Virus record (IMG/VR): IMGVR_UViG_3300034102_001739 | Location: 741 to 64,740 of that record | Reading direction: 5' to 3' (one strand) | Length of the DNA stretch: 64,000 bases | Source: a virus | Lineage: Duplodnaviria > Caudoviricetes | Shown: in pieces, positions 627 through 62,715 of the stretch | How positions within the stretch are numbered: position 1 is the first letter of the stretch | How the letters are laid out: every line of letters begins with the position of its first letter | The notes under the pieces: generated by a model | The model's database searches: none | Seen by the model: only the letters and a program-made list of their open reading frames with translations | What the model was told of the DNA's origin: nothing | Translations under genes and position numbers: made by a program

Positions 627-1003
627 AAGAAAGTGTTTAAAGGTAATACTTCTCGGTTTCTTTTATTTAGATTGGTTTGTGTCTGTACTAATTTATTACC
701 AATGACTGTAGCCAAATGTAGTCTCTTAGCTTCTAACAATCCTACCGCTTTTATGTACGCCTCCTCCACGGTCTCGTAACAATAATCTAGGATACTATTA
801 CCTGTGGAACTCTCGCTTACCATAAAATAGTCCGGATATGTTATGTCTTGATGAATAATAAATCTTCTTTTGTAAGCGTCAAAATATCCTACTATGAATA
901 CATCCTCCGTTTTTAGGTTGGTTAACATGACTGTGCCCATTCCCTCTGCGTAAACTAGCTCTGAGAAGTCGCTAATAATCGGTTTTTCGTTCAGGTTCTT
1001 CAT
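617..1003 (-). CDS. hypothetical protein
   Basis: 128 aa ORF overlapping both neighbours. Confidence 0.7.
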   Translation of the reverse strand: MKNLNEKPIISDFSELVYAEGMGTVMLTNLKTEDVFIVGYFDAYKRRFIIHQDITYPDYFMVSESSTGNSILDYCYETVEEAYIKAVGLLEAKRLHLATVIGNKLVQTQTNLNKRNREVLPLNTFLWI

Positions 1004-3272
1004 GCTCTGTTGGTAATGTTATTGAATGACAAACATTTTCTAAATCATTTTGGAACATAAGGACAGTTCCAGCTTTTACACGTCTTCCCTTAGCTACTTC
1101 CATCCCAACTAAATCGTGGAATTTCATATCCGGGTCTTGGAACATTCTCATTGCTATGTCCGAATCTTGTACATAGGAATTTGAGTACGCAAAATCATCT
1201 TGACTATCTGCTGCCGTTTTAGAACCTCCTTTACCTGCCCCTCTTTTTAACTGGGTGGTATTTATGATAGGAACTTTAAACGCCTTTGCTACCCGTTTTA
1301 AATTTCTAGTCACGTACACAATCTTTTCCCATCCCTCTGCCATTTTTGGTTCCATCAAATAAGAACCGTCTATAAAAACTACTGACGGCTTGTACATACC
1401 TATGTGGGTAGTGAGGTCTTCTATTGTTTGACAGCTTTCAAGTATTCTAATTTTGGACCTGTTTTCCTTTAAGGAATCTAGCCCTTTATAATAGCGTAAC
1501 TTTTCTCGCTCGGTTAATTTTCCAGACAAAAATCTCTCGTATGGTAGTTTGAAAGTTAAACAGTCTATACGTTCTTTGATTTCCTCCTCTCCCATTTCGT
1601 TTGAAATAAAGAGTATCTCTCCGAAAGTATCTCCCATTAACTCCCTCTCCTTTAGTACTTTATCCAAAAGAAACGCCAAATAAACTAGGTACCACGTGTT
1701 ATGGGTAACTGTAAAATCCGCGAGACAGAATAAGTGGTCTCCGTCTATAGTGAACCCATAGTAAGTATCTACGACATCCTTTTCTACGGTAACACCTGTA
1801 TGGTTAGCGTTTTTTATTTGTTTTCTCTCTGAAGCTTTCTTTCTAGGTATCCTAGTAGGTATTTCGTCCGTGTTGCCATATATATTAGCCTTATAATACA
1901 GTACTCCATTTACCAGTTTAATACTAGTAGAAACGGCTAACCCTAGAGTACGACATAGTAACACTAAATTCTCGTGTAACTCTTTCAATTTGAAAGTAAC
2001 CTCGAAAGAGTTCTGCCCCAAGTATCCATCAGAGTCTATTAACCCTGCTAAAAGCTGAAGTCTATTCTCTCTGGAGGTTTTTATGTACTCCATAGGGATA
2101 TGTTTTCTACCTGTATGTTTTTTATACCTACCCTTTATAAGTTTTAGAGAATCCATAATTTCACGTAGTCTCCCACAACCTTTCATCCTATAGATTATAG
2201 GTGAACTAGGGCAATTTTCAAAACTACCTCCAAAGCTCTCCGCATATTTAGCGCAGTAATCCAATATCTCAGAATCTATGTTAGTGATACATAATTCTCT
2301 TGAGTGCCCATCGCCTAACCATATACCTAGGAAATAGGGGTCTATCTCTAAGGTACTATCCGGAAACTCCATCCCAAAAGATTTGTACCCCTTTGCTGCC
2401 TTTTTAAAACTTTTTGGCCTCGTTAGGTACTCTCTTACAGAGAGGTTTTCCGTACTCCAAGTAGTCTCACAACTTTGGTACACCCTCTTACCATTTATAG
2501 TAGCCCTATGCGCCTTTGTCTTAGGGACTCTTAATGATAGAATATGGCTTTCGTTGACTCTATAATCCTCCCCCCTTACTTGTCTCACCCAGTACATTTG
2601 TTCTGTACCCGTAGCCACGTTAAGGACGTTTCTTACGTTACCATCTGGACCCATTAGTCTATCCCCTACCACTACATCCTCTACGTTTTTAGTGGTTAAG
2701 TCGTACATGAGTACTTTAGTTCCTTTACCTAGACATTTGCCCTGCCCTGCACGACCTCCTATTGTTATTAGGTCTTGTTTACGATAGCCGTAGAAAGTAG
2801 AGTCCATTACTTCTGAACCCATACTTAGATATGTAACCCCACGGGATTTCATTCTATCCTCGTACTCCGATTTTCTTAGATCTATATCATCCGAATAAAG
2901 TACATCTTTACTCTCTACGGAATCTACCATTAACTCCGAAACTACTTCCTGCAGTTCTGATAGTTTACCTCTTGGGTCTTTTTCTATCCCACGTACTAAC
3001 TTTGGGATTTTATCCGACAATGTGGCGAATATAAATCGCTCTTTTACTTTGTTTAAGTAATACGTAGGTCTAGCATCGACACTCTCTGGTAATTTGAATT
3101 TTTCGCAAAAAGTTTTTACTCCTACAAGTTCACCATAGTCCTTATAGTAATCATGTACGAAATTATGCTGTAATAACTCTTCTCCATCGAGCCATTTTCT
3201 CTGTATCTTGGAGAAATTCTTTCCATCCTTTTTAGACAGACACGCTACGAATAATTGTTCTGCTACTGTCAT
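972..3272 (-). CDS. dnaB: DnaB-like replicative helicase containing an intein
   Basis: Walker A GGRAGQGK|T split by the intein; ISNEM, VFIDGSY, PIINTTQL, QDSD and KGR motifs of SF4 helicases. Confidence 0.92.
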   Translation of the reverse strand: MTVAEQLFVACLSKKDGKNFSKIQRKWLDGEELLQHNFVHDYYKDYGELVGVKTFCEKFKLPESVDARPTYYLNKVKERFIFATLSDKIPKLVRGIEKDPRGKLSELQEVVSELMVDSVESKDVLYSDDIDLRKSEYEDRMKSRGVTYLSMGSEVMDSTFYGYRKQDLITIGGRAGQGKCLGKGTKVLMYDLTTKNVEDVVVGDRLMGPDGNVRNVLNVATGTEQMYWVRQVRGEDYRVNESHILSLRVPKTKAHRATINGKRVYQSCETTWSTENLSVREYLTRPKSFKKAAKGYKSFGMEFPDSTLEIDPYFLGIWLGDGHSRELCITNIDSEILDYCAKYAESFGGSFENCPSSPIIYRMKGCGRLREIMDSLKLIKGRYKKHTGRKHIPMEYIKTSRENRLQLLAGLIDSDGYLGQNSFEVTFKLKELHENLVLLCRTLGLAVSTSIKLVNGVLYYKANIYGNTDEIPTRIPRKKASERKQIKNANHTGVTVEKDVVDTYYGFTIDGDHLFCLADFTVTHNTWYLVYLAFLLDKVLKERELMGDTFGEILFISNEMGEEEIKERIDCLTFKLPYERFLSGKLTEREKLRYYKGLDSLKENRSKIRILESCQTIEDLTTHIGMYKPSVVFIDGSYLMEPKMAEGWEKIVYVTRNLKRVAKAFKVPIINTTQLKRGAGKGGSKTAADSQDDFAYSNSYVQDSDIAMRMFQDPDMKFHDLVGMEVAKGRRVKAGTVLMFQNDLENVCHSITLPTEHEEPERKTDY
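1698..2735 (-). mobile_element. intein with LAGLIDADG homing endonuclease (346 aa)
   Basis: Starts CLGKGTKVLMYD, block B VNESHILSL, endonuclease motifs FLGIWLGDG and LLAGLIDSDG, ends VTHN followed by Thr (+1). Confidence 0.95.
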
Positions 3273-3889
3273 TAGGTAAATCTTAATTTATTTTCACTAA
3301 GGATTTTTCTCCTATAATCGTCTCCCTTTACAAGTACTGGAATTACCCCCTCTCTAAGTAGTGAAGCTACGTCTTCAGAGAATACATCTTTTACGAATTT
3401 TGGGTCCGTGTTTGAAGCGAACCAAATGGGTTTACACATCTGCACTCTATACCTAATTACGGATTCCATAACTCTCTTTACTAAGTCTGGTAGGTATTTT
3501 GGTTTCCCATTTTCGTCCACATTTTTACCGAACTCGTCTATGCCCAAAAAGTCTATAGTTCGGAGGATTCTATCTAGTTCTACTTTTTCCTCCTCTGAAT
3601 ACCATGAAGATGTAAACTTATCCACTATTTCGTCCATAGTGTACACTCTTACCCGGTATTTTTCTGAGATTAATTGGATGAAAGCCGTATTCATTAAGTG
3701 GGATTTTCCTGTACCGTTTGCTCCCCATAGATACAAACCTACTCCTCTATCTAAAGCCTCCTTAGATTTACCTAGATACTCGTTTACAGATTTTAATGCC
3801 TGTTTATCATTTCGATACTCTGCTAGAGTTTTCTTGTGCCACGATTTTTTTATGCCACAAGAAATGTAGTAATCCTCTGTTTTGCCCAT
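3272..3889 (-). CDS. DnaC/IstB-like AAA+ helicase loader
   Basis: GLYLWGANGTGKS Walker A, FLGIDEFG Walker B, FASN, C-terminal GDDYRR; directly upstream of DnaB. Confidence 0.85.
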   Translation of the reverse strand: MGKTEDYYISCGIKKSWHKKTLAEYRNDKQALKSVNEYLGKSKEALDRGVGLYLWGANGTGKSHLMNTAFIQLISEKYRVRVYTMDEIVDKFTSSWYSEEEKVELDRILRTIDFLGIDEFGKNVDENGKPKYLPDLVKRVMESVIRYRVQMCKPIWFASNTDPKFVKDVFSEDVASLLREGVIPVLVKGDDYRRKILSENKLRFT

Positions 3890-3891
3890 AA

Positions 3892-4659
3892 TTAAAAATC
3901 CTCCGACTCTGTTAGTTCTTCCCTCATGTACTCTTTACTTCCATCGGGTCTTGTTAGTTTAGCCAAAACTTCATCCTTTACGAATGCTACATTTACTAAC
4001 GTAGGAAGCCCATTTCTGTAATCATGGTAGTTTAAGACAGCCTCCACCATAATAGAAAATAACGTAGTTCTATCAAAAGCCTTTAACATATTGTTAGTTT
4101 GGTAATACTCTACTTTATTTCTAATGATATACTGCTCCCCTCCTGTGTATAACTCGTACAGTATTCCGTGTAACTCCGTAAATTTTTGTGGTTGCCAATT
4201 TTCTACTCCGTCATCCAATAAATCTTGAAACTCTTTGTGTAGATATTTAGCTCTTGATTTGGCCAATGTGGATTTGTGTTTACCATACTCCTTTATTTGA
4301 GTCATTACTTTTTCCACCGCTTTATCCACTAAAGGGCTTTCTAGCTCGAACGGAAAAAACTTTCTGCCTCTTAGTTCACCTACATAAACGGTATCCGAGT
4401 CCTCGAAACCGAAGAGGATTAACCCCTCCGATTCCAATTCTTCTAAAGCCTCGTCAAATAGATTATTTTTTGGACTACTACTAAAATCTCCCCACAAGTC
4501 TTTTAGGTGGGATACATCTTTACTATACTTTACATACCTAGAACCGTCTTCCATTTCCTCTGCCACGGTATCTGACAACAATGTACAATACAATAAATAC
4601 TTTAGCTGTACTAACCCCAATATGGGCATTTCCTTTCTTAACCTATTTAAGATATTCAT
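3892..4659 (-). CDS. hypothetical protein, possible replication initiator
   Basis: 255 aa; sits just upstream of loader and helicase; winged-helix-like LFDEALEELESEGLI. Function inferred from position only. Confidence 0.45.
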   Translation of the reverse strand: MNILNRLRKEMPILGLVQLKYLLYCTLLSDTVAEEMEDGSRYVKYSKDVSHLKDLWGDFSSSPKNNLFDEALEELESEGLILFGFEDSDTVYVGELRGRKFFPFELESPLVDKAVEKVMTQIKEYGKHKSTLAKSRAKYLHKEFQDLLDDGVENWQPQKFTELHGILYELYTGGEQYIIRNKVEYYQTNNMLKAFDRTTLFSIMVEAVLNYHDYRNGLPTLVNVAFVKDEVLAKLTRPDGSKEYMREELTESEDF

Positions 4660-4661
4660 AA

Positions 4662-4922
4662 TTACTCTGTGATTTCTTTAACTTGAATTTCCAACTCTCC
4701 GGTAACTAAATCATCGGCTATCTCTAAAGCCGTTTGTACAGCTCCTTTGTATAAATGTGGATTTTCCAATGGTAGAGAAACACCAACGGTTATTTTCGCA
4801 CTCTCGTAATTCCCCAAATTTTTAGTTAGGGATTTCTCGTAGTAAATATAACCTTTCTCTGCTAAATCCTTTGGAGCTAATTCCTCTGGACTATCCGACT
4901 TCTTCGTCTTTACTGGTGGCAT
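4662..4922 (-). CDS. hypothetical protein
   Basis: 86 aa; TKNLGNYESAKITVG motif; starts MPPVK. Confidence 0.7.
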   Translation of the reverse strand: MPPVKTKKSDSPEELAPKDLAEKGYIYYEKSLTKNLGNYESAKITVGVSLPLENPHLYKGAVQTALEIADDLVTGELEIQVKEITE

Positions 4923-5211
4923 GATCTACTTCTTTTTTAAATAGTTTATTAATCTCTACAATCAAGTTGTCTGAGGGTCTCCTTGCTCCATCGAATTTAT
5001 TTACTATGGGAACTAACCCCTTAGCCAACCTTATTGGGTAATATCTTACCCCATTGGATACTAGTGGTGCTGAGGGAAAGATACCTTTCTTTTCGTAACT
5101 TAATATAGAGTCCTTTGATTTACCTACTATTAAGGCAAGACCTGCTATTGTTACAGCCTCTATTAGTTTACCATTTACGGTAAGTCTAAAGATATGTTTT
5201 GCCCTCCTCAT
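4891..5211 (-). CDS. MerR-like HTH DNA-binding protein
   Basis: TIAGLALIVGKSKDSILSYEKKGIFP...GVRYY fits the MerR-type winged HTH pattern. Confidence 0.7.
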   Translation of the reverse strand: MRRAKHIFRLTVNGKLIEAVTIAGLALIVGKSKDSILSYEKKGIFPSAPLVSNGVRYYPIRLAKGLVPIVNKFDGARRPSDNLIVEINKLFKKEVDHATSKDEEVG

Positions 5212-5213
5212 AG

Positions 5214-5639
5214 TTAGTCAATTTTTACAGAAAACACTTTGGACACTTTCTCCTCGAAAAGTTCTTCAACAACTTCTATCGGAATTTTTCCGGCTTCGTA
5301 CATTGACTCGAAAACGTCCTCTCTGAATACGAGAACACTTTCCAGACATTCCTTCAACCCGTGTTTTTGAAGAATCTCCTCGTAGGTTGGAACCATTGTC
5401 TTTGACACTCGATTGCTGTGTAGAATGTTCACCTGTTTACCTGCGTGGGTAACAGAAACCATTTCCCCTTTTTCCCAAGGCTTACCATTGGTTTTTAGGT
5501 ACTCTTCCAAAGACTTCCTAGTGTTCTCCAAACCTTTCTTCAGTTCTTTCTCGGAGTCTTTTAATTTTAGGTAGCTGATACCCAATAACGCTATCTCTTC
5601 TTGAGATAACTCACCCTTATTTTTCTTTACTGGTGGCAT
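5214..5639 (-). CDS. hypothetical protein
   Basis: 141 aa, N-terminal coiled coil; starts MPPVK. Confidence 0.7.
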   Translation of the reverse strand: MPPVKKNKGELSQEEIALLGISYLKLKDSEKELKKGLENTRKSLEEYLKTNGKPWEKGEMVSVTHAGKQVNILHSNRVSKTMVPTYEEILQKHGLKECLESVLVFREDVFESMYEAGKIPIEVVEELFEEKVSKVFSVKID

Positions 5640-5651
5640 AAATTTTAGGTT

Positions 5652-5685
5652 AAAAATGGGAGTCCTTTATTTAAGAACCCCCATT
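5652..5685 (-). terminator. probable intrinsic terminator
   Basis: Imperfect hairpin aatgggagtcctt/aagaacccccatt followed by a T-run on the minus strand, downstream of 5711..6619. Confidence 0.55.
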
Positions 5686-5710
5686 CTAGTTATTTACTTA
5701 TTTCCTGTGA

Positions 5711-6619
5711 TTAGCCCAAGAACTTAATCTTAGTGTTGTTGTCATCCAACTCGTAGGAAGTTTCGTCTGTGTAAAGAACGGTAACTTCATCACCATCTAC
5801 GGACTCTACTACACCTGTGAACCACTCTTCTTCTTCCTCCCAATAAACAGATACTTTGTCTCCCTCTTCAAGGTCTTCTTTGGCTACGACTTTACCCGCT
5901 TTTTTAGTGGATTTTGCTGTCTCCTTTTTGGCTTCTCCCTTTGAGGGTTTGGCTGCCTTTTTGGTTTTTCCCTCCAAAAGATTTACGATATTTTCAGCTA
6001 CCGCTTTTACATCCGCACTGGCATCATCATCGAAACCATCCAAAATGTCTCCAAGTTTATCCGCATCGAAACCGTCTTCTCCCATCGCCGTAACTTTCGC
6101 TATGAATTTTTTACGTGCCAACTCACCTGCTTCGTACGCTTCCAATAGTTCTACCACGTCAGAAACTTTTGAACTTTCTTTTGGTGACTCTTGTTCGTCG
6201 TCATCGTCGTCATCGTCCTCTTCAGAACTTCCTGCTGATGTTGGTGCGTTCAAGATTAGTAGGCGGAGTTTTTTGTTGGTGTTTTTACCCTCAGTGTCAT
6301 CGGGGTCGATTCCCAAGCCTTTTAGGATTTTGGTTAACTCCTTAACGTCTTTTTCCATCAGCTCCTCTTCTGTGTAGGTAGCTACTTTTTTGGTAGGCTC
6401 TTCCTTAGCTGTCTTCTTAGACGTTTTTTCTTCTGAGGTTGAAACTGATTCCTCTTTTGCTACTGTCGATTTTTTGAGGGGCTCGTCGTTGGTTGTAAAA
6501 CTTCCTAGAGACATTACGGGCAAAAAGATTTTCCCATTGTGTTGAATAGCTTCAACTTCTACGTTTGCTGCAAACTGTGCTACGATACTAGCCACTGGCT
6601 TAATTTTTCCTTCAGTCAT
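5711..6619 (-). CDS. acidic/lysine-rich multidomain protein with a Rho-N/HeH-like motif and a C-terminal Tudor-like domain
   Basis: YTEEELMEKDVKELTKILKGLGI helix-extension-helix; poly-D/E tract; C-terminal LEEGDKVSVYWEEEEEWFTGVVESVDGDEVTVLYTD. Confidence 0.65.
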   Translation of the reverse strand: MTEGKIKPVASIVAQFAANVEVEAIQHNGKIFLPVMSLGSFTTNDEPLKKSTVAKEESVSTSEEKTSKKTAKEEPTKKVATYTEEELMEKDVKELTKILKGLGIDPDDTEGKNTNKKLRLLILNAPTSAGSSEEDDDDDDDEQESPKESSKVSDVVELLEAYEAGELARKKFIAKVTAMGEDGFDADKLGDILDGFDDDASADVKAVAENIVNLLEGKTKKAAKPSKGEAKKETAKSTKKAGKVVAKEDLEEGDKVSVYWEEEEEWFTGVVESVDGDEVTVLYTDETSYELDDNNTKIKFLG

Positions 6620-6669
6620 ACGATTTTAATTTAAAAGTGATTATTTGTTTGTGTTAATTTGAATGAGGT

Positions 6670-6725
6670 TTAAATATAATAAAAGTTTTTGAAACTTCCA
6701 AATAGTTCATTTAGAGCTACTTACA
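6670..6725 (-). promoter_or_regulatory. conserved 56-bp promoter cassette, copy 1
   Basis: Minus strand TTTG-N20-TATATTTA; nearly identical to 52381..52436. Confidence 0.75.
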
Positions 6726-6954
6726 AAGTCTCGTTAACTGTTACAATAGCATGGTCTGGCCCATACTCTGTGAATAGACTTGTACCCACAGTAATTGGGT
6801 ACGCCTCAAAGGTCTGTCCATCCGGAATTGTCTCCTCTATACGTCTCATTACTGTCTCGTAGTTAGCCGTAATTTTAAAAACATACCCTACTGGCTTAGT
6901 TAGTAGCTCTACGTATTGAGCCTCTGCCGTATTTTTATCGAAATATAGTCTCAT
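6721..6954 (-). CDS. hypothetical protein
   Basis: 77 aa ORF with ATGA overlap. Confidence 0.65.
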   Translation of the reverse strand: MRLYFDKNTAEAQYVELLTKPVGYVFKITANYETVMRRIEETIPDGQTFEAYPITVGTSLFTEYGPDHAIVTVNETL

Positions 6955-30475: not shown

Positions 30476-32125
30476 TTAATATGAGTTTCTTTTAGACATA
30501 CTTACCGCTGATTGTATTCCCTCGTATAACGGATTTTCCAATACTTCTATTTCGTACCCGGTTTCTTGTTCTTGATTAGCTGCTAAACAACAAAGGGCTA
30601 AACTATCCACGTAGTCATCAAAATGTCCCTCCATCTTATGACAAACTAAATAAGGTCCATTGAAATACTTTAAACAGTTTTTCATTTGTTCCTCGAACTT
30701 AGTAAATTCTGTTGTACCCCTAACTCTACTACTGGCCGGAATTTTTATCCGCTTACAAGTAATGTCTGATGTTAGATTATACCACATATCCGACTTACTT
30801 TGTGCTGTAAAAGTATAGGGTTCTATGTTTACGTATTCTCCACAAGCATAGATTAACCTATCTACAACCGCTTTTCCAACACCTGTATAATCCGCAAAAA
30901 TGGTGGAAACATTGTATTGGGCTATTGCGTCTAGTATCGCATGATGTTGAGTCTCGTAGTCCAACTCCCCCAAATCTATCCACGTTAGTATCTCCTTAAA
31001 AGGTTTATCGAATACGTCCTCTCCTTTGTAAACTCTCGCTATGGTTAAGATAGTACTCGCAGGACTTTTCGCAATATCCAATCCGGCAACGACATAATCC
31101 GAATCTTTCGCCATTTGAAATCCTTTTGAACGATTAAGCAGATTGTTGAACTCTGTATCTGTAATGAGCATACCACTCTCCAAGTCCCAAGTGAGGGCGT
31201 ACGCCAATTTAAACGCCTGTGAGTCTTCTCCCCATCTTTCTCTTTTCCTAAGGACATCCGATTCGTAGTTTAGGTGAAACCTATTGCCATCCCTGTTGTA
31301 GGCTTCCCTACGAGCTCTTATGATATGTTTGTACTCGTATTCAAAATGATTACGTATTCTTTCATCCGAATTTTTTCTATCTATTGACCTGTTACGTTGA
31401 ATTTCATCCCAAAAGTGATTTTTTACAGTACCCGTAGTACCTACTTTAAGCATAGTTCCAGCCGTAGCTGATAACATAGGTTCTATGGATTTGGTTACGA
31501 TAAAATCGTCCACATCCTGTGCCTCTTCCACTATTACTAAGTCGTATGTCTTAGATTCTATTTTAGACTGCTTACTCGCTACCTGTCCTGCCAAATATGA
31601 CCCATTGGTGAGCGATAATTTCGCTGAACTAGTTAGGTACGATTCTATGTCTGGGTCTGACATTATTATCTCCGCATTTGCCGAATTTAACCTAGTCATA
31701 GCCCTCGAATATGTGGTACTAACTTGGTCTGACTGGGGAGCGAATAACCCAATTCTGAAACCGCTCTCGAACTGTTTTAATTCCGGAATAACTTTTGATA
31801 ACGCCGGTAGTATTACAGTTAGAGTATCTATGATAAAAGCCATGGTCTCTGATTTACCTGACTGCCTAGATAATAGTACTGTTTTTATATCCCCTCTAAA
31901 AGTAATTACCGAATGAATAACCGCATAAGCTATATCCACTTGGTACTGATATAAAGATAATCCGGTTAACGCCTTACCGAACTCTACGATTTTTTCACAC
32001 ACAAAATGCTCGTCAAAAGTTACCGACTTACCTACTAGTTCATCGGTACTTATGTCTGACATACTTTCTCCAGTAGCCTTAAAGACTACCCCCTCTTCTA
32101 AGGGTTTACTTTTTTTCTTTGCCAT
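30476..32125 (-). CDS. terL: terminase large subunit
   Basis: YQYQ, SRQSGKS Walker A, IVEEAQ Walker B, AGLDIA, DYTGVG, DDYVDS nuclease motifs. Confidence 0.92.
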   Translation of the reverse strand: MAKKKSKPLEEGVVFKATGESMSDISTDELVGKSVTFDEHFVCEKIVEFGKALTGLSLYQYQVDIAYAVIHSVITFRGDIKTVLLSRQSGKSETMAFIIDTLTVILPALSKVIPELKQFESGFRIGLFAPQSDQVSTTYSRAMTRLNSANAEIIMSDPDIESYLTSSAKLSLTNGSYLAGQVASKQSKIESKTYDLVIVEEAQDVDDFIVTKSIEPMLSATAGTMLKVGTTGTVKNHFWDEIQRNRSIDRKNSDERIRNHFEYEYKHIIRARREAYNRDGNRFHLNYESDVLRKRERWGEDSQAFKLAYALTWDLESGMLITDTEFNNLLNRSKGFQMAKDSDYVVAGLDIAKSPASTILTIARVYKGEDVFDKPFKEILTWIDLGELDYETQHHAILDAIAQYNVSTIFADYTGVGKAVVDRLIYACGEYVNIEPYTFTAQSKSDMWYNLTSDITCKRIKIPASSRVRGTTEFTKFEEQMKNCLKYFNGPYLVCHKMEGHFDDYVDSLALCCLAANQEQETGYEIEVLENPLYEGIQSAVSMSKRNSY

Positions 32126-58676: not shown

Positions 58677-59384
58677 CTACAAATTTTTTGGAATTGTCAT
58701 TTCTTTGATGATGTCTTTAGCCTTATCCTGTAACATCATAAACTTATGAGTCTGCATATTTACATACCCGGTAAATTTTCTTTCTCTTAGAGTTTTTAGA
58801 AAATCTACTGTACTAATTTTAGAACCCCAATATAGTCCAAGGGCTATGTTTACTCTCTTATTAGGAATACTCTCTATAAGAGTAAAGGCTTCCTCTAAGT
58901 CTTCCTCCGAATTTACCACGAATTTTATGAAGTCTTTGTCGTTTAGGATTCCTACGTTTTTGTTTAGGAAACTTCCTCCCTCTCCAGTACTTGCCAATTT
59001 GTAATCTACTACAAAACTGACATTTTCTAAATCCCTATACGGAGAAACGTCCATACTTCCATTTGTTTCTACTACGACTTTAAATCCTAAATTGGATAAT
59101 CTTTGTAGTAACTCCGTAGGTCTAAACATAAGAGGTTCTCCTCCAGTTAGACAAATTACATCGTTACCATAGTCTTCCAATTTATCTATGATTTCGTTAA
59201 GGGTTAGACTGTCTCCTTGATGTTTTTCTAAAGACTCTGGAGTATCACATAAAGTACCCATTGTGTCTAGGTAACATCTTAAATTACACCCGGCTAGCCT
59301 TACGAAAGTACAAGCTACTCCTATTCCGTATGTGTTTACCTCTCCCATGAAAGATGGGTAAATCGTATTTACTTTAAAATCCAT
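58677..59384 (-). CDS. queE: 7-carboxy-7-deazaguanine synthase (radical SAM)
   Basis: SFMGE, FVRLAGCNLRC-x8-CDT, LTGGEPL, ETNGS, DYKL, IKFVV, QTHK. Confidence 0.9.
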   Translation of the reverse strand: MDFKVNTIYPSFMGEVNTYGIGVACTFVRLAGCNLRCYLDTMGTLCDTPESLEKHQGDSLTLNEIIDKLEDYGNDVICLTGGEPLMFRPTELLQRLSNLGFKVVVETNGSMDVSPYRDLENVSFVVDYKLASTGEGGSFLNKNVGILNDKDFIKFVVNSEEDLEEAFTLIESIPNKRVNIALGLYWGSKISTVDFLKTLRERKFTGYVNMQTHKFMMLQDKAKDIIKEMTIPKNL

Positions 59385-59832
59385 TTCTTACTTCTTCTTT
59401 AGTTATGTATTTATTGACTATTACTCTCTCCCTAAACTCCGGATAACTCTTAACGAAAAGGGCTAGGCTTTTTATTAATACCTCCCTCTCTAATGGGTCT
59501 TTTGGTTTAAATGCTTTTGTAGGTAGTAACATTCCCTCTAGTGCCGATAGACGTTCTATCTTACCCATTGCTAGGTATCTTTGGGACAGTAATTTTATTC
59601 TACCATAACCGTCTAAACTACATCTTACTACTGAATAATACGTCTGCTTCTTGTAGTAAGAGGTTAGCTCCGCCATCAATACTGCTGCTAACTCTGGATG
59701 TACTTTTCTACACATACTTTTAGTACCCTCGATGTACTCCCTTGTCGCTTTTAAATCCAGTTCCGATACTACTCCTTTGACTTTGTGTTCTACGTTAGAC
59801 CCTACTAGGAATCTGTAACTACTTTCTGCCAT
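59374..59832 (-). CDS. hypothetical protein in the deazaguanine operon
   Basis: 152 aa ORF overlapping queE. Confidence 0.7.
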   Translation of the reverse strand: MAESSYRFLVGSNVEHKVKGVVSELDLKATREYIEGTKSMCRKVHPELAAVLMAELTSYYKKQTYYSVVRCSLDGYGRIKLLSQRYLAMGKIERLSALEGMLLPTKAFKPKDPLEREVLIKSLALFVKSYPEFRERVIVNKYITKEEVRNGF

Positions 59833-59835
59833 TTT

Positions 59836-60531
59836 TTATTCTTTTTTAGGTTTCTTTCTAGGAGACGCTGAAGCTATAACAACTGCTTCCTCTATTTGTT
59901 TTTGGGGCTCTTCTTTAGGGGGTGTTGGGGCAAATAATTTTGCTAGAATACCTCCTCCACTTCCTCCTGCTGGTGAAGAAGCATCTATTTTTAAAGAGAA
60001 ATGTTCTCTCCCCGCATTTACTTTGGACATTACCAAATTACTAAGTCTATCTAGTTCCCCCGATAGATTAGCATCCGGTACTCCTCCGTCTATTTTCTCG
60101 TACACAGACGCTCTTTTTACCCTCTCGTATTGTACCTCTACTAAGAACGTATAAAAATCGTCAGGTGTTTCAGGTGTCTGCCCTCCCCATTCTATACCAC
60201 AAACGAACCCTGATTTAAACGAGGGGCATTTGTCGTACATATAACACGAGTCACAATTTACGCCTATTCCGACTACTTCCCTCATAGGAATTTTTGGACG
60301 TTCTTTGACTATGAGTTGTTCAAAAGTCTCGTCCCAAATATCCATTGGATTTCCTACTATCCTAGATAGGTAATACTCCTTACATTCCTCTAGGTCACTG
60401 TCTGATTGTTTACAAGTAATACACTCAGGATATTCTCCTGTTATAAAAAACGGACAAAGGTGTTTCTTTAGAGTAGTACTCTCCTCCGCCATTTTTATAA
60501 TCTGTATTCTCGACTTAACGCTTTCTTTCAT
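59836..60531 (-). CDS. Cys-rich metal-binding protein
   Basis: LCPF..ECITC..EC and CDSC.....CP......C clusters; overlaps the dpdA-like gene. Confidence 0.7.
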   Translation of the reverse strand: MKESVKSRIQIIKMAEESTTLKKHLCPFFITGEYPECITCKQSDSDLEECKEYYLSRIVGNPMDIWDETFEQLIVKERPKIPMREVVGIGVNCDSCYMYDKCPSFKSGFVCGIEWGGQTPETPDDFYTFLVEVQYERVKRASVYEKIDGGVPDANLSGELDRLSNLVMSKVNAGREHFSLKIDASSPAGGSGGGILAKLFAPTPPKEEPQKQIEEAVVIASASPRKKPKKE

Positions 60532-61450
60532 ATTTACCTGCCTCTTTATTTGTTAGTAACAAATTAGCTATTTTTATGTACTCTTTTCTGAACCCTAACC
60601 ATGCCAATAAGTTCATTCTATTAACATCGTCTCTGTGATCCTTTTTCGTTACTTTTGAGAAATCTACTCCAGCCTCCTCGTATTTTATTCTCTGCCCCTT
60701 ACGCCGAAATTTTTGTTTGGTATCCCAACTCTTGAAATTTTTACCGTCGTAATTAAAAGTAGTTCCGTATCGTACTCCACTTAACCAAGACGTAGAATCC
60801 ACGCTAAAAAATGGATACCTCCGTAATATTCTTATCTCTGTCCATGCGAATCCATGTACTCTTACCTTGTATTTTTTGGCCAGTAGAAAGAATCTGTGGG
60901 CGAATTTCTTTTGACTTTGATTTATACCTACGTATTTATACTTTTTACAGTACTCTTCAAAATGTTCGATACCGTGTGGGTCTATGCTCTCGTCCTCGTG
61001 TGCTACATAAACTACGTCAACTATTTTTTCTAGGGGCTCAAAGTATTTTTTATTCCACTTTCTTACTATCTCCCTACCCACGATTTTATCTAAGTCTAGG
61101 TTAGCGACTACGTAGATATACTCACTATGCGCTCTAACCCATGCGACATACTCCTCCAAGTAGGGAATCCAATACTCTTCTTTGCGCATTTCCTCCACGA
61201 ATCCTGTCGCCATAAAGGAGAACGCTCCAGAGTCCGTCATAAACAAACCACCCTCCGATTTTAAAAACGGTAGTACTTCATCATAGTAGGTTAGACCTTT
61301 TCTAATGTAGAAGTAAGAAACTAATATCTCCCTAATACCAAACGCTACTAATTGTTTAGTATCTCCTACTGACGACGCTGAAAAGAACATTACTCCTTTG
61401 TTTTTATTCTTATCGTAGTAACCCTCTTGCTCTTTTAACTTCTTCAACAT
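60515..61450 (-). CDS. dpdA: DpdA/TGT-like 7-deazaguanine transglycosylase
   Basis: ILVSYFY, FMTDSGAFS, ANLD, VHGFA, FSVDSTSW...RYG; flanked by queC and queE. Confidence 0.8.
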   Translation of the reverse strand: MLKKLKEQEGYYDKNKNKGVMFFSASSVGDTKQLVAFGIREILVSYFYIRKGLTYYDEVLPFLKSEGGLFMTDSGAFSFMATGFVEEMRKEEYWIPYLEEYVAWVRAHSEYIYVVANLDLDKIVGREIVRKWNKKYFEPLEKIVDVVYVAHEDESIDPHGIEHFEEYCKKYKYVGINQSQKKFAHRFFLLAKKYKVRVHGFAWTEIRILRRYPFFSVDSTSWLSGVRYGTTFNYDGKNFKSWDTKQKFRRKGQRIKYEEAGVDFSKVTKKDHRDDVNRMNLLAWLGFRKEYIKIANLLLTNKEAGKYERKR

Positions 61451-62135
61451 ACTTTACTGGTAATTTTCCACCGTATTTAATTCTCTCTAAAACCTCTTTT
61501 TGTAACGACTGGATACTTTTACTTGTTATCCGTTCCTCGAATAATTCGGGGTCAAATATGTTATTATTAACTAGTGCTACGGCTTTATTTAAACAAGGAC
61601 GACATTTTCCGCATCCTTTGTGACTTTTTGAATCGTAGCAAGAACGTATCTGTTGTACCTTAGGGATAGGCATTCCTCTCTCAATTACTTCTTTTACCAT
61701 TTCCGATTTTGTCAAGTCTCTGAAAGGTACTAGAAAGCTAAAGTTTTTACTCTCCCAACCCATGTCTGCCTCACAGTTACTATTTAGATGCCTAAACAAC
61801 GTCATTGTCCGTTTAATAAACGTATCGTCCTTATCAGGAGCATCATCAGAGGCGTTTAGTCCTAAATATACGTGTTGCCCATACTGCATAGCTATAGTTA
61901 ACAGTAGTAAATTTCTATAAGGTAGATATTTACTTTCTCTCTCATACTCACCTATTGGTAACTCTTTTATGAGTAACCTGTCTTGGTAGTGTTTAGGTAA
62001 AGTCTTTAGGAAAGCTATCTCTACTTCTGAGTAAGATGTCTTCATATCTACGTATAGTAAAACGTCAGGACTTATTAGAAATTCTTGTAGTGTGGAGTCA
62101 AATCCTCCAGAAAATAATAATACTTTTTTCTCCAT
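61410..62135 (-). CDS. queC: 7-cyano-7-deazaguanine synthase
   Basis: LLFSGGFDS PP-loop, PYRNL, TKSEMV, SCY...GCGKCRPC zinc site. Confidence 0.88.
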   Translation of the reverse strand: MEKKVLLFSGGFDSTLQEFLISPDVLLYVDMKTSYSEVEIAFLKTLPKHYQDRLLIKELPIGEYERESKYLPYRNLLLLTIAMQYGQHVYLGLNASDDAPDKDDTFIKRTMTLFRHLNSNCEADMGWESKNFSFLVPFRDLTKSEMVKEVIERGMPIPKVQQIRSCYDSKSHKGCGKCRPCLNKAVALVNNNIFDPELFEERITSKSIQSLQKEVLERIKYGGKLPVKYVEEVKRARGLLR

Positions 62136-62152
62136 AGTTAACTTAATATAAT

Positions 62153-62178
62153 AAAAGCTCCCTAATTAGGGAGCTTTT
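62153..62178. terminator. perfect-palindrome intrinsic terminator
   Basis: aaaagctccc-taatta-gggagctttt. Confidence 0.8.
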
Positions 62179-62202
62179 CAAAATCTGACTTCTTTCTGAA
62201 TC

Positions 62203-62313
62203 TTACGATTTAGAGCCTGTCTTTGGTGTTGCGGCTGCTGGAGCAGTAGCTTTTCCACCTTTTCCACCTTTTCCAGTAGCTACGGCTGCTGTTTCTTTTT
62301 TACCTTTTGGCAT
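62203..62313 (-). CDS. 36-aa K/G/A/T-rich histone-tail-like peptide (not in ORF track)
   Basis: MPKGKKETAAVATGKGGKGGKATAPAAATPKTGSKS; own promoter upstream and terminator downstream. Confidence 0.7.
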   Translation of the reverse strand: MPKGKKETAAVATGKGGKGGKATAPAAATPKTGSKS

Positions 62314-62385
62314 GGTCTTAAAGTATTAAAAATTTTTAGGCAGTATTATTTTATAATCGATTAGCCTTTATAACCGAAAGCGAAA

Positions 62386-62417
62386 CAAAGATAACGTGTC
62401 CGTATCTTATTTGCAAA
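62386..62417 (-). promoter_or_regulatory. Bacteroidota sigma-A-type promoter
   Basis: TTTG-N20-TATCTTTG, perfect consensus. Confidence 0.8.
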
Positions 62418-62433: not shown

Positions 62434-62715
62434 TTACGTAGAAAGTAAAAGAATTTTTAATTCTATTGCCGTCATTTCCCCATCTGCCTCTTGGAATGAG
62501 GGGTTTAGTAGTACATGAGTACCCTTTCGAGAGAAAAATTTGTTACTAATAATTGACGCTTTTACGGCTTGGTTAAGTGCCCCTGCGCCAATTACTCTAA
62601 GAATAACCACTTTATTTGGGTTATCTTGAAAGGCTGAGTTGATACTTCCTGCTAATTTGTTAGCGTCTGTCGATGACTTACATCTTAATACGATTGGATT
62701 GTTTCCGGTTTCCAT
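62434..62715 (-). CDS. spoVS: SpoVS-family (Alba-like fold) protein
   Basis: LAGSI...VIGAGALNQAVKA...PSF...MTAI, the SpoVS signature. Confidence 0.85.
   Translation of the reverse strand: METGNNPIVLRCKSSTDANKLAGSINSAFQDNPNKVVILRVIGAGALNQAVKASIISNKFFSRKGTHVLLNPSFQEADGEMTAIELKILLLST

Follow-up and report, generated by a model that had tools for sequence, protein, structure and literature searches.

Why does a tailed phage keep a polycationic open reading frame (ORF) of 36 codons between a SpoVS gene and a queC-like gene, and what ties it to queC? The question is raised by a 64,000-nucleotide (nt) stretch of IMG/VR record IMGVR_UViG_3300034102_001739 (positions 741 to 64,740, hereafter the window), whose source record is a 64.7-kb tailed-phage fragment with sheath, baseplate, tape-measure, portal and terminase genes. 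A sequence-only reading had picked out the ORF together with a Bacteroidota promoter of its own and a palindromic terminator, had called it a dedicated monocistronic unit for an unstructured, histone-tail-like peptide, and had linked it to queC. It overlooked a pseudoknot between the promoter and the ATG. This ~40-nt element is common to all relatives, and the same 5' RNA element stands ahead of canonical queC in other phages. The proposed link to queC therefore holds, and it runs through a predicted RNA element not described before. The features of the unit are as follows.

62414..62417, minus strand: -33 promoter element TTTG, read from the sequence; the full -33/-7 pair recurs in 12/17 distinct peptide-type relatives
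62386..62393, minus strand: -7 promoter element TATCTTTG (TAnnTTTG), separated from the -33 box by a 20-nt spacer; from sequence and conservation
62338..62377, minus strand: H-type pseudoknot RNA of ~40 nt, a candidate 7-deazapurine riboswitch, with covariation
62371-62377 (TCGGTTA) with 62357-62363 (TAATCGA), minus strand: pseudoknot helix P1, coordinates checked
62364-62367 (AGGC) with 62338-62341 (GCCT), minus strand: pseudoknot helix P2, coordinates checked
62342-62356, minus strand: A-rich pseudoknot loop L3, coordinates checked
62314..62337, minus strand: A/U-rich 24-nt spacer from the P2 3' strand to the ATG, read from the sequence
62203..62313, minus strand: small ORF of 36 amino acids (aa) plus stop, its translation polycationic and predicted disordered with a net charge of +7; position and composition conserved
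62153..62178, minus strand: intrinsic terminator hairpin with an 11-base-pair (bp) stem, from folding, and a T-rich tail; the ATG of the QueC-like gene follows 17 nt on

The pseudoknot leader and its distribution

Relatives of the locus were collected with SpoVS as the anchor, which gave 19 IMG/VR loci with SpoVS identities of 60-67%, and with a SpoVS profile search, which gave 79 loci, 35 distinct ones among them having SpoVS identity of at least 44%. The pseudoknot was traced with a strict sequence pattern in IMG/VR (77 loci) and in metagenome contigs (76 loci). Both P2 and the outer P1 pair covary, in support of an H-type architecture of P1, P2 and an A-rich L3. In our own count on 40 unique sequences, the outer P1 pair is paired in all 40 (U-A 18, G-C 9, C-G 7, A-U 4, U-G 2); with shuffled partners the average is 18.5 and no shuffle exceeds 26. 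Positions 3 and 4 of P2 are also paired in 40/40, with three and four pair types, respectively, and the mean P2 length of 5.2 compares with 3.9 for shuffled partners (maximum 4.4). A tool count on the model-made alignment A6 (45 distinct rows) gave 86.1% of cells paired versus 77.9% in shuffles (0/500 as high) and a covariation score of 0.244 versus 0.090 in shuffles (0/500), slid partners scoring 0.02-0.12. Since the tail is offset in 16/45 rows of A6, its paired-cell count is conservative. Outside the helices, L3 holds an invariant AAAA.AATAC, and an invariant C, present as GC directly before the P1 3' strand, can also pair with an invariant tail G within P2. A covariance model of the element (R1) scores 54.4 bits in the window, and the element is single-copy in the record.

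The genes that follow the pseudoknot define its biological context. Among the viral strict-pattern loci, 52 have a canonical QueC gene downstream, 23 the peptide and 2 neither, one of these being a locus end and the other (L081) carrying an HNH-like gene inserted ahead of queC. The metagenome loci divide into 42 with QueC, 30 with the peptide and 4 that reach a contig end. No gene class besides queC or the peptide was found behind the element in these two sets, the L081 insertion aside. What a relaxed pattern added on viral contigs, among the matches listed, was the RGG clade described below and chance matches lacking P1 and P2. In cellular genomes the strict pattern gave two chance-like matches in a species collection, and scans with R1 (0/141) and with the preQ1-I model RF00522 (0/121) found nothing in genomes of one sampled class, samples that are no proof of absence.

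The spacing between the pseudoknot and the ATG is the same before queC (16-27 nt from the end of P2, median 20, n=47) and before the peptide (20-28 nt, median 21, n=22). Across the motif loci (L020-L096), SpoVS is present in 23/23 that carry the peptide and in 0/54 of the others, and queC-type loci lack both SpoVS and the peptide. The queC setting is seen in full in the environmental phage L029, where the pseudoknot lies between queE and queC in a complete deazaguanine cluster that also contains queD, two GTP cyclohydrolases and a formyltransferase-like gene. Note that HNH-type or homing endonuclease genes occur inside such clusters, at 7178-8908 of L081 (locus reverse strand), between pseudoknot and queC, and at 3725-4387 of L029.

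The two settings differ in how the element is transcribed. Bacteroidota promoters follow the consensus TTTG, about 19-21 nt, TAnnTTTG, and the window promoter fits this -33/-7 form. When 17 distinct peptide-type and 33 distinct queC-type upstream regions were compared, the -7 box TAnnTTTG was found 5-9 nt upstream of a conserved CGGTT in 15/17 of the former; among the latter the full promoter occurred in 0/33 and the -7 box alone in 1/33. Because the -7 box ends 5-9 nt before CGGTT, the 5' end of the peptide-type RNA should adjoin P1, so that the RNA would start at the pseudoknot.

At the other end of the unit, the terminator (62178-62153) forms an 11-bp stem, 5 of its pairs being G-C, around a 4-nt loop; it carries a T-rich tail and folds at -17.5 kcal/mol (z = -3.2; 2/200 shuffles as stable). 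In the 18 distinct peptide-to-QueC-like intergenic regions compared, a strong hairpin follows the peptide ORF in 18/18, with a T-run after 16 and a weak one in L039 and L096; this count was made by eye, an automatic criterion having flagged only 8/18 because the stems had absorbed A/T tracts. The stop codon of the small ORF lies 17-30 nt upstream of the hairpin in relatives. In all 18 versions the QueC-like ATG is located 2-26 nt downstream of the hairpin end, which leaves no room for a promoter, and the QueC-like gene must therefore be fed by read-through. The promoter and the palindromic terminator are present as had been claimed, and conserved, whereas the description of the unit as strictly monocistronic is probably not correct; a promoter-proximal first cistron with an internal partial terminator fits these regions better. 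This first cistron is presumably highly expressed relative to the downstream enzyme genes.

The small ORF and its peptide

The ATG ORF at 62203-62313 (minus strand) has a translation identical to the peptide first proposed. A small ATG ORF of 31-53 aa occupies the place between SpoVS and the QueC-like gene in 18/19 close IMG/VR loci, the 19th being cut, and a small cationic ORF (31-58 aa) fills the same slot in 33/33 untruncated distinct loci with SpoVS identity of at least 44%; it was found in 0/37 loci with more distant SpoVS (at most 40% identity). The conservation and synteny on which the proposal depended are thus established, and the peptide is encoded as well by 30/76 metagenome pseudoknot loci (26 peptides listed, some shared with the viral list). 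It had been taken for unannotated; in the cultured Bacteroides phage BS162P1 (OP172706.1; host B. salyersiae) a 36-aa version is annotated as the hypothetical protein WAX08864.1. The frame is kept at ~30-58 codons, with its ATG at a fixed distance from the pseudoknot, in every untruncated relative and across at least five clades.

Composition and charge were assessed on the 29 distinct peptides from viral loci, which are 31-58 aa long and carry net charges of +7 to +16. Their composition (G 26.5, A 22, R 20, T 12, K 8, S 5 and P 3.5%) includes 28% Arg plus Lys, only two Asp or Glu residues overall and almost no hydrophobic residues. Lys usage varies, some peptides being Lys-rich without Arg and 13/29 having no Lys at all, and the metagenome scan added versions with KP, TPR and GRRP repeats. 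At residue 2, Ala (13 peptides) and Gly (12) prevail over Pro (2), Ser (1) and Leu (1), which makes the Pro2 of the window peptide a minority state; the 12 M-G starts lead into a Gly-rich stretch. Mean column identity in the alignment is 29%, and Met1 is the sole invariant position. The peptide has no family match in Pfam, PHROGs, NCBIfam or PADLOC and no usable match in the ESM Atlas.

Since positive charge is conserved across both Lys and Arg codon families, constraint acts at the protein level. In 76 peptide-gene pairs of at least 70% identity, which are not independent, differing codons were synonymous in 219 cases and non-synonymous in 172 (56% synonymous). We conclude from these comparisons of sequence that the small ORF is a genuine, conserved phage gene for a predicted intrinsically disordered polycation of 31-58 aa. 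All that stays constant across this family is that its members are small, disorder-prone in composition and highly positive in charge, have a small residue next to Met and occupy the slot between SpoVS and the QueC-like gene.

The unstructured nature first ascribed to the peptide is borne out by this composition, which is strongly cationic as well. The likeness to histone tails does not survive as homology: GKGGKG is but one form that a loose G-[KR]-G-G-[KR] pattern takes, column identity is low, Pfam and PHROGs give no match, and because Arg fully replaces Lys in many relatives the likeness is compositional only. A role as decoy or substrate for lysine-modifying or reader proteins, which had also been suggested, is excluded as a general function by the 13 Lys-free peptides.

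Other aspects of the coding region were examined. Near-identical gut phages of an RGG-type clade (L110-L126, L182-L201) have peptides of 33-58 aa according to the number of ~10-aa GGRRTATRGG-like units, indicating rapid in-frame repeat expansion and contraction. Gap lengths (147/178 being multiples of 3) were rejected as coding evidence, as the ORFs had been preselected as open and repeats make the alignments ambiguous. A G-quadruplex in the GG-rich coding region was rejected because Lys-rich relatives have no G-tracts. On the opposite strand, a hairpin resembling a terminator (62274-62291, plus strand) lies within the ORF and is probably due to chance (3 sites against 4.0 expected).

A candidate riboswitch and a protamine-like polycation

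The known RNA that the pseudoknot most calls to mind is the preQ1-I riboswitch (RF00522). Both are small H-type pseudoknots with a P1 helix, an A-rich L3 running along P1 and a P2 formed by loop nucleotides and the 3' tail; in each, U-U follows the P1 5' strand and an invariant C, which in the phage element may instead belong to P2, immediately precedes the P1 3' strand; and both stand ahead of queC, the phage element presumably acting, like preQ1-I, close to the start codon. Like preQ1-I elements, the phage pseudoknot lies upstream of queuosine or deazaguanine genes, the loci without QueC being accounted for by the peptide plus a QueC-like gene, by ends, or by L081. The differences are equally clear. 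RF00522, RF01054 and RF02680 give no match at E <= 10, and the 39-bit gathering cut-off of RF00522 is not reached. The phage element has a P1 of 6-7 bp versus about 5, an L3 of about 15 nt and no separate L2, and it carries GC before the P1 3' strand where preQ1-I has UC or AC in the available text of PMC11625349. Its occurrences come from phage and metagenome DNA alone, and its assignment to a 7-deazapurine ligand is tentative. Given the lack of an Rfam match, the differing helix and loop lengths, and GC instead of UC or AC, the predicted architecture is that of preQ1-I, yet the element is no recognised member of that family. The only Rfam matches obtained, terminator-like hits to leader and small RNA (sRNA) models plus noise, were dismissed as representing no real family. 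A divergent pseudoknot at 2860-2900 of L141 has one P1 pair fewer, a P2 of 6 bp and an L3 of only ~8 nt without the AAAA run, and is followed by a Lys/Ala/Pro-rich ORF of 45-49 aa and then by canonical QueC.

In the reading that we favour, a disordered polycation is governed by the pseudoknot as a candidate 7-deazapurine riboswitch and acts non-covalently on nucleic acid, probably together with SpoVS. The unit comprises, in order, the Bacteroidota promoter, the 5'-terminal pseudoknot, the A/U-rich spacer, the small ORF, a hairpin terminator that is strong yet of necessity leaky, and the QueC-like, DpdA-like and QueE genes. The pseudoknot would sense a 7-deazapurine of the queC pathway (preQ0- or preQ1-like) and, when folded, would hinder initiation about 20 nt downstream on a leader that is A/U-rich and devoid of a Shine-Dalgarno sequence. 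The terminator would keep the short peptide message abundant while a fraction of transcripts reads on into the enzyme genes. The peptide would serve as a stoichiometric, non-covalent counter-ion or nucleic-acid binder of the protamine, H1-tail or RGG-like kind, probably working with the Alba-fold SpoVS on phage DNA undergoing deazaguanine modification. Taken as a single chain, these steps make a plausible account that we hold tentatively, short of calling it probable.

The sensor part of this reading is suggested by a single-copy structured leader with invariant junction nucleotides that stands only before queC or a gene replacing it, in phages with no obvious shared trans-acting protein. The non-covalent part is favoured by the constants of the peptide family, by the Alba fold of SpoVS and by the co-occurrence of Alba domains and RGG motifs: two sources describe SpoVS, first as a prediction and later as a classification, as a nucleic-acid binder of the Alba superfamily, and name RGG motifs as frequent companions of Alba domains (PMC2732212, PMC11621453). 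Here, as in proteins with an Alba domain and an RGG tail, an Alba-fold protein has a cationic low-complexity partner of RGG-like or Lys-rich type; unlike in those proteins, the two are separate, unfused genes, split by a promoter and a putative regulatory RNA. The peptide family likewise resembles protamine-like proteins (baculovirus P6.9, H1 and H4 tails, SPKK and RGG segments) in being tiny, disordered, Arg/Lys-rich with Gly, Ala, Ser, Thr and Pro, and repeat-prone, and with at least 25% Arg plus Lys and almost no acidic or hydrophobic residues it has the make-up of that class, in which function is expected to follow charge and not exact sequence. It differs in lacking sequence homology or a histone fold and in having its expression tied to a deazaguanine cluster. 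Among the literature matches listed, no phage protamine-like protein is described in the text available.

Several observations weigh against the riboswitch and counter-ion reading. Five inner P1 pairs never vary in A6 and are therefore uninformative. The fold is weak alone, with P1 in the minimum-free-energy structure, P2 in the centroid and z = 0.33, and no Rfam family, PreQ1 included, matches at E <= 10 in 121 nt of the window or 101 nt of a queC-type locus. Because P2 ends 24 nt before the ATG in the window, the route by which initiation would be blocked is unproven. No SpoVS with a fused cationic tail occurs in the best 120 of 5242 homologues, a set drawn without the 'longer' length class, and the four longest of those inspected have N-terminal extensions only. 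The window peptide is the least charged member of its family. Finally, riboswitches normally govern genes that make, import or use their ligand, and a DNA counter-ion would sit oddly in such a regulon, a point that favours a covalent role for the peptide.

Neighbouring genes, rival explanations and implications

Pfam and PHROG matches identify the neighbouring genes as SpoVS, a QueC-like protein and a TGT, as the sequence-only reading had named them, followed by a QueE-like enzyme.

62434..62715, minus strand: SpoVS-family (Alba-fold) protein of 93 aa, always upstream of the peptide unit (PF04232, 1.3e-13; PDB 2eh1, 4e-7)
61410..62135, minus strand: divergent QueC-like PP-loop protein of 241 aa (PF06508, 1.2e-17)
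60515..61450, minus strand: N-terminal part, 311 aa, of a TGT/DpdA-like transglycosylase (phrog_887, 2.5e-39, profile positions 5-280 of 509)
59836..60531, minus strand: Cys-rich C-terminal part, 231 aa, of the TGT/DpdA-like protein, as a separate overlapping ORF (phrog_887, 1.4e-13, profile positions 364-475 of 509)
58677..59384, minus strand: QueE-like radical SAM enzyme of 235 aa (PF04055, PF13353; phrog_2076, 1.6e-28)

In L075 a single 732-aa ORF (4593-6791) starts where the split TGT/DpdA-like gene of the window begins, a match of position only. Between the QueE-like and DpdA-like genes of the window lies a 152-aa ORF (59374-59832, minus strand) without a match in Pfam, PHROG, NCBIfam or PADLOC; it has a 144-aa counterpart in L039 and L096 and lies at a place in which a QueD could be expected. 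The linkage of SpoVS to deazaguanine genes recurs, since in the unrelated phages L172 and L174 (about 2500-3850) a distant SpoVS (42% identity) directly precedes QueD-like and QueE-like genes, with no peptide and no pseudoknot. Elsewhere in the window, a 766-aa ORF (972-3272, minus strand) matches terminase-large-subunit PHROGs at residues ~156-527 and DnaB-like helicase PHROGs at ~553-749, and a second, separate terminase large subunit is encoded at 30476-32125.

The QueC-like protein scores 41 bits against TIGR00364, whose cut-off is 150. Its SGGFDS P-loop and Cx8CxxCxxC zinc motif are intact, but it has lost the YxQxHxxE region and reads APDK instead of YPDC. Both of the altered motifs are reported essential for preQ0 synthesis and are absent from QatC, which ligates a deazaguanine carboxylate to a protein N-terminus (10.64898/2026.04.08.717055). 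To judge by these motifs, the window protein may not make preQ0.

The peptide could then be a covalent substrate, the QueC-like enzyme ligating 7-carboxy-7-deazaguanine to its free N-terminus, as Cap9 and QatC do with their targets, and the DpdA/TGT-like protein binding the conjugate or exchanging it into DNA. The invariant gene order of peptide, QueC-like and TGT-like genes argues for this, as does a QueC-like neighbour with retained P-loop and zinc motif that, like QatC, is without the preQ0-synthesis motifs. A small residue 2 in nearly all peptides is compatible with Met removal, and a deazapurine-linked RNA control would suit a gene that uses the ligand. In type IV cyclic-oligonucleotide-based antiphage signalling (CBASS), according to the available text, the modification is carried by Gly2 in a Gly-rich tail that a TGT-like protein binds, an arrangement which the 12/29 M-G starts resemble (10.1101/2025.04.06.647259). 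The systems share a flexible N-terminal tail of small residues beside genes of the QueC PP-loop and TGT families, the substrates being the CD-NTase of type IV CBASS with Cap9 and Cap10, and QatB with QatC. Their differences are substantial: CBASS and Qat are bacterial defences with folded Gly2 targets, and Cap10 has lost nucleic-acid binding, whereas the phage case is a DNA-modification cluster with a predicted free 36-aa peptide.

The window peptide, moreover, lacks the Gly2 of Cap9 and QatC targets, having Pro2, and Ala2 is the commonest state in relatives, ahead of Gly2. The non-canonical QueC-family neighbour is not universal, the L141 peptide preceding a canonical QueC (234 bits with TIGR00364). 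Four different PP-loop subtypes follow the peptide across loci, which argues that no single dedicated ligase co-evolves with it. Scores of 29.5 bits with the PADLOC QueC model and 23.1 bits with QatC are no better than expected of any QueC relative. Furthermore, phage QueC/DpdA clusters are known for modifying DNA with free bases. On balance we consider a covalent substrate unlikely.

The pseudoknot might, alternatively, be no sensor at all and instead stabilise the 5' end of the transcript, act in translation or bind a protein, with the polycation serving host takeover or anti-defence through host nucleic acid or an acidic defence protein. Hairpins at 5' ends stabilise mRNAs, and the element lies at the extreme 5' end of the transcript in Bacteroides phages, matches no known riboswitch model and has other DNA-handling genes nearby, such as one for a RusA-like resolvase. 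A generic stabiliser, however, would be expected before many genes, and this element occurs in single copy per record, its strict pattern only before queC or the peptide. Copies of the queC type are operon-internal and lack the promoter (0/33), and no evident trans-acting protein is common to both phage groups, SpoVS and the peptide being confined to one of them. The invariant single-stranded and junction nucleotides, in turn, resemble a ligand pocket. Such a role without ligand sensing seems to us improbable.

A further reading makes the ORF a regulatory leader whose translation tunes terminator read-through into the QueC-like operon, the peptide itself being functionless. With a promoter, a leader RNA and a short ORF ahead of a terminator and biosynthetic genes, the unit is laid out like an attenuator; the QueC-like gene lacks its own promoter, and the peptide sequence is poorly conserved. 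Yet folds gave no alternative antiterminator pairing, and codons read by queuosine-modified tRNAs (Asn, Asp, His and Tyr) are almost absent from the small ORFs, not enriched. The universal positive charge over Lys and Arg codons and the scarcity of acidic and hydrophobic residues speak for constraint on the protein. Attenuation by ribosome occlusion was rejected, since a stop codon 17-30 nt before the stem is beyond the masking reach of a terminating ribosome. We regard a functionless leader peptide as quite improbable.

More elaborate is DNA hypermodification with the peptide as building block: the QueC-like enzyme would amide-link 7-carboxy-7-deazaguanine to the N-terminus, the DpdA/TGT-like protein would swap the peptidyl-deazaguanine for guanine, and the riboswitch would meter supply. 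If true, phage DNA would be covalently decorated with polycationic peptides whose supply is metered by a new class of 7-deazapurine riboswitch; we think this very improbable. That the small ORF is a chance frame in a non-coding leader or sRNA, as its shortness, its low complexity, the alternative sense frames open in 22/62 cases and the lack of a Pfam or PHROG family might suggest, is hardly credible in view of the excess of synonymous changes and of an open frame at a fixed ATG distance that persists through sequence turnover and repeat changes.

The riboswitch and counter-ion reading bears on how phages manage modified DNA. The pseudoknot is absent from Rfam 15, and no description of it was found in the literature searched. 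Should a 7-deazapurine prove to be its ligand, the element would represent either a riboswitch class carried by phages or a far-diverged variant of preQ1-I; phages would then exert feedback control over their own DNA-hypermodification pathways, and the peptide would be the first member of the regulon that is neither enzyme nor transporter. The combination of a preQ1-I-like pseudoknot with a protamine- or RGG-like polycation is an unprecedented one of known kinds. The peptide defines a widespread phage micropeptide family absent from Pfam and PHROGs, and BS162P1 on B. salyersiae is a cultured system that carries its gene. Whether as a protamine-like counter-ion acting with an Alba-fold protein or as the covalent partner of a QueC-like enzyme, the peptide would add to our view of how abundant gut phages organise or protect their modified DNA.

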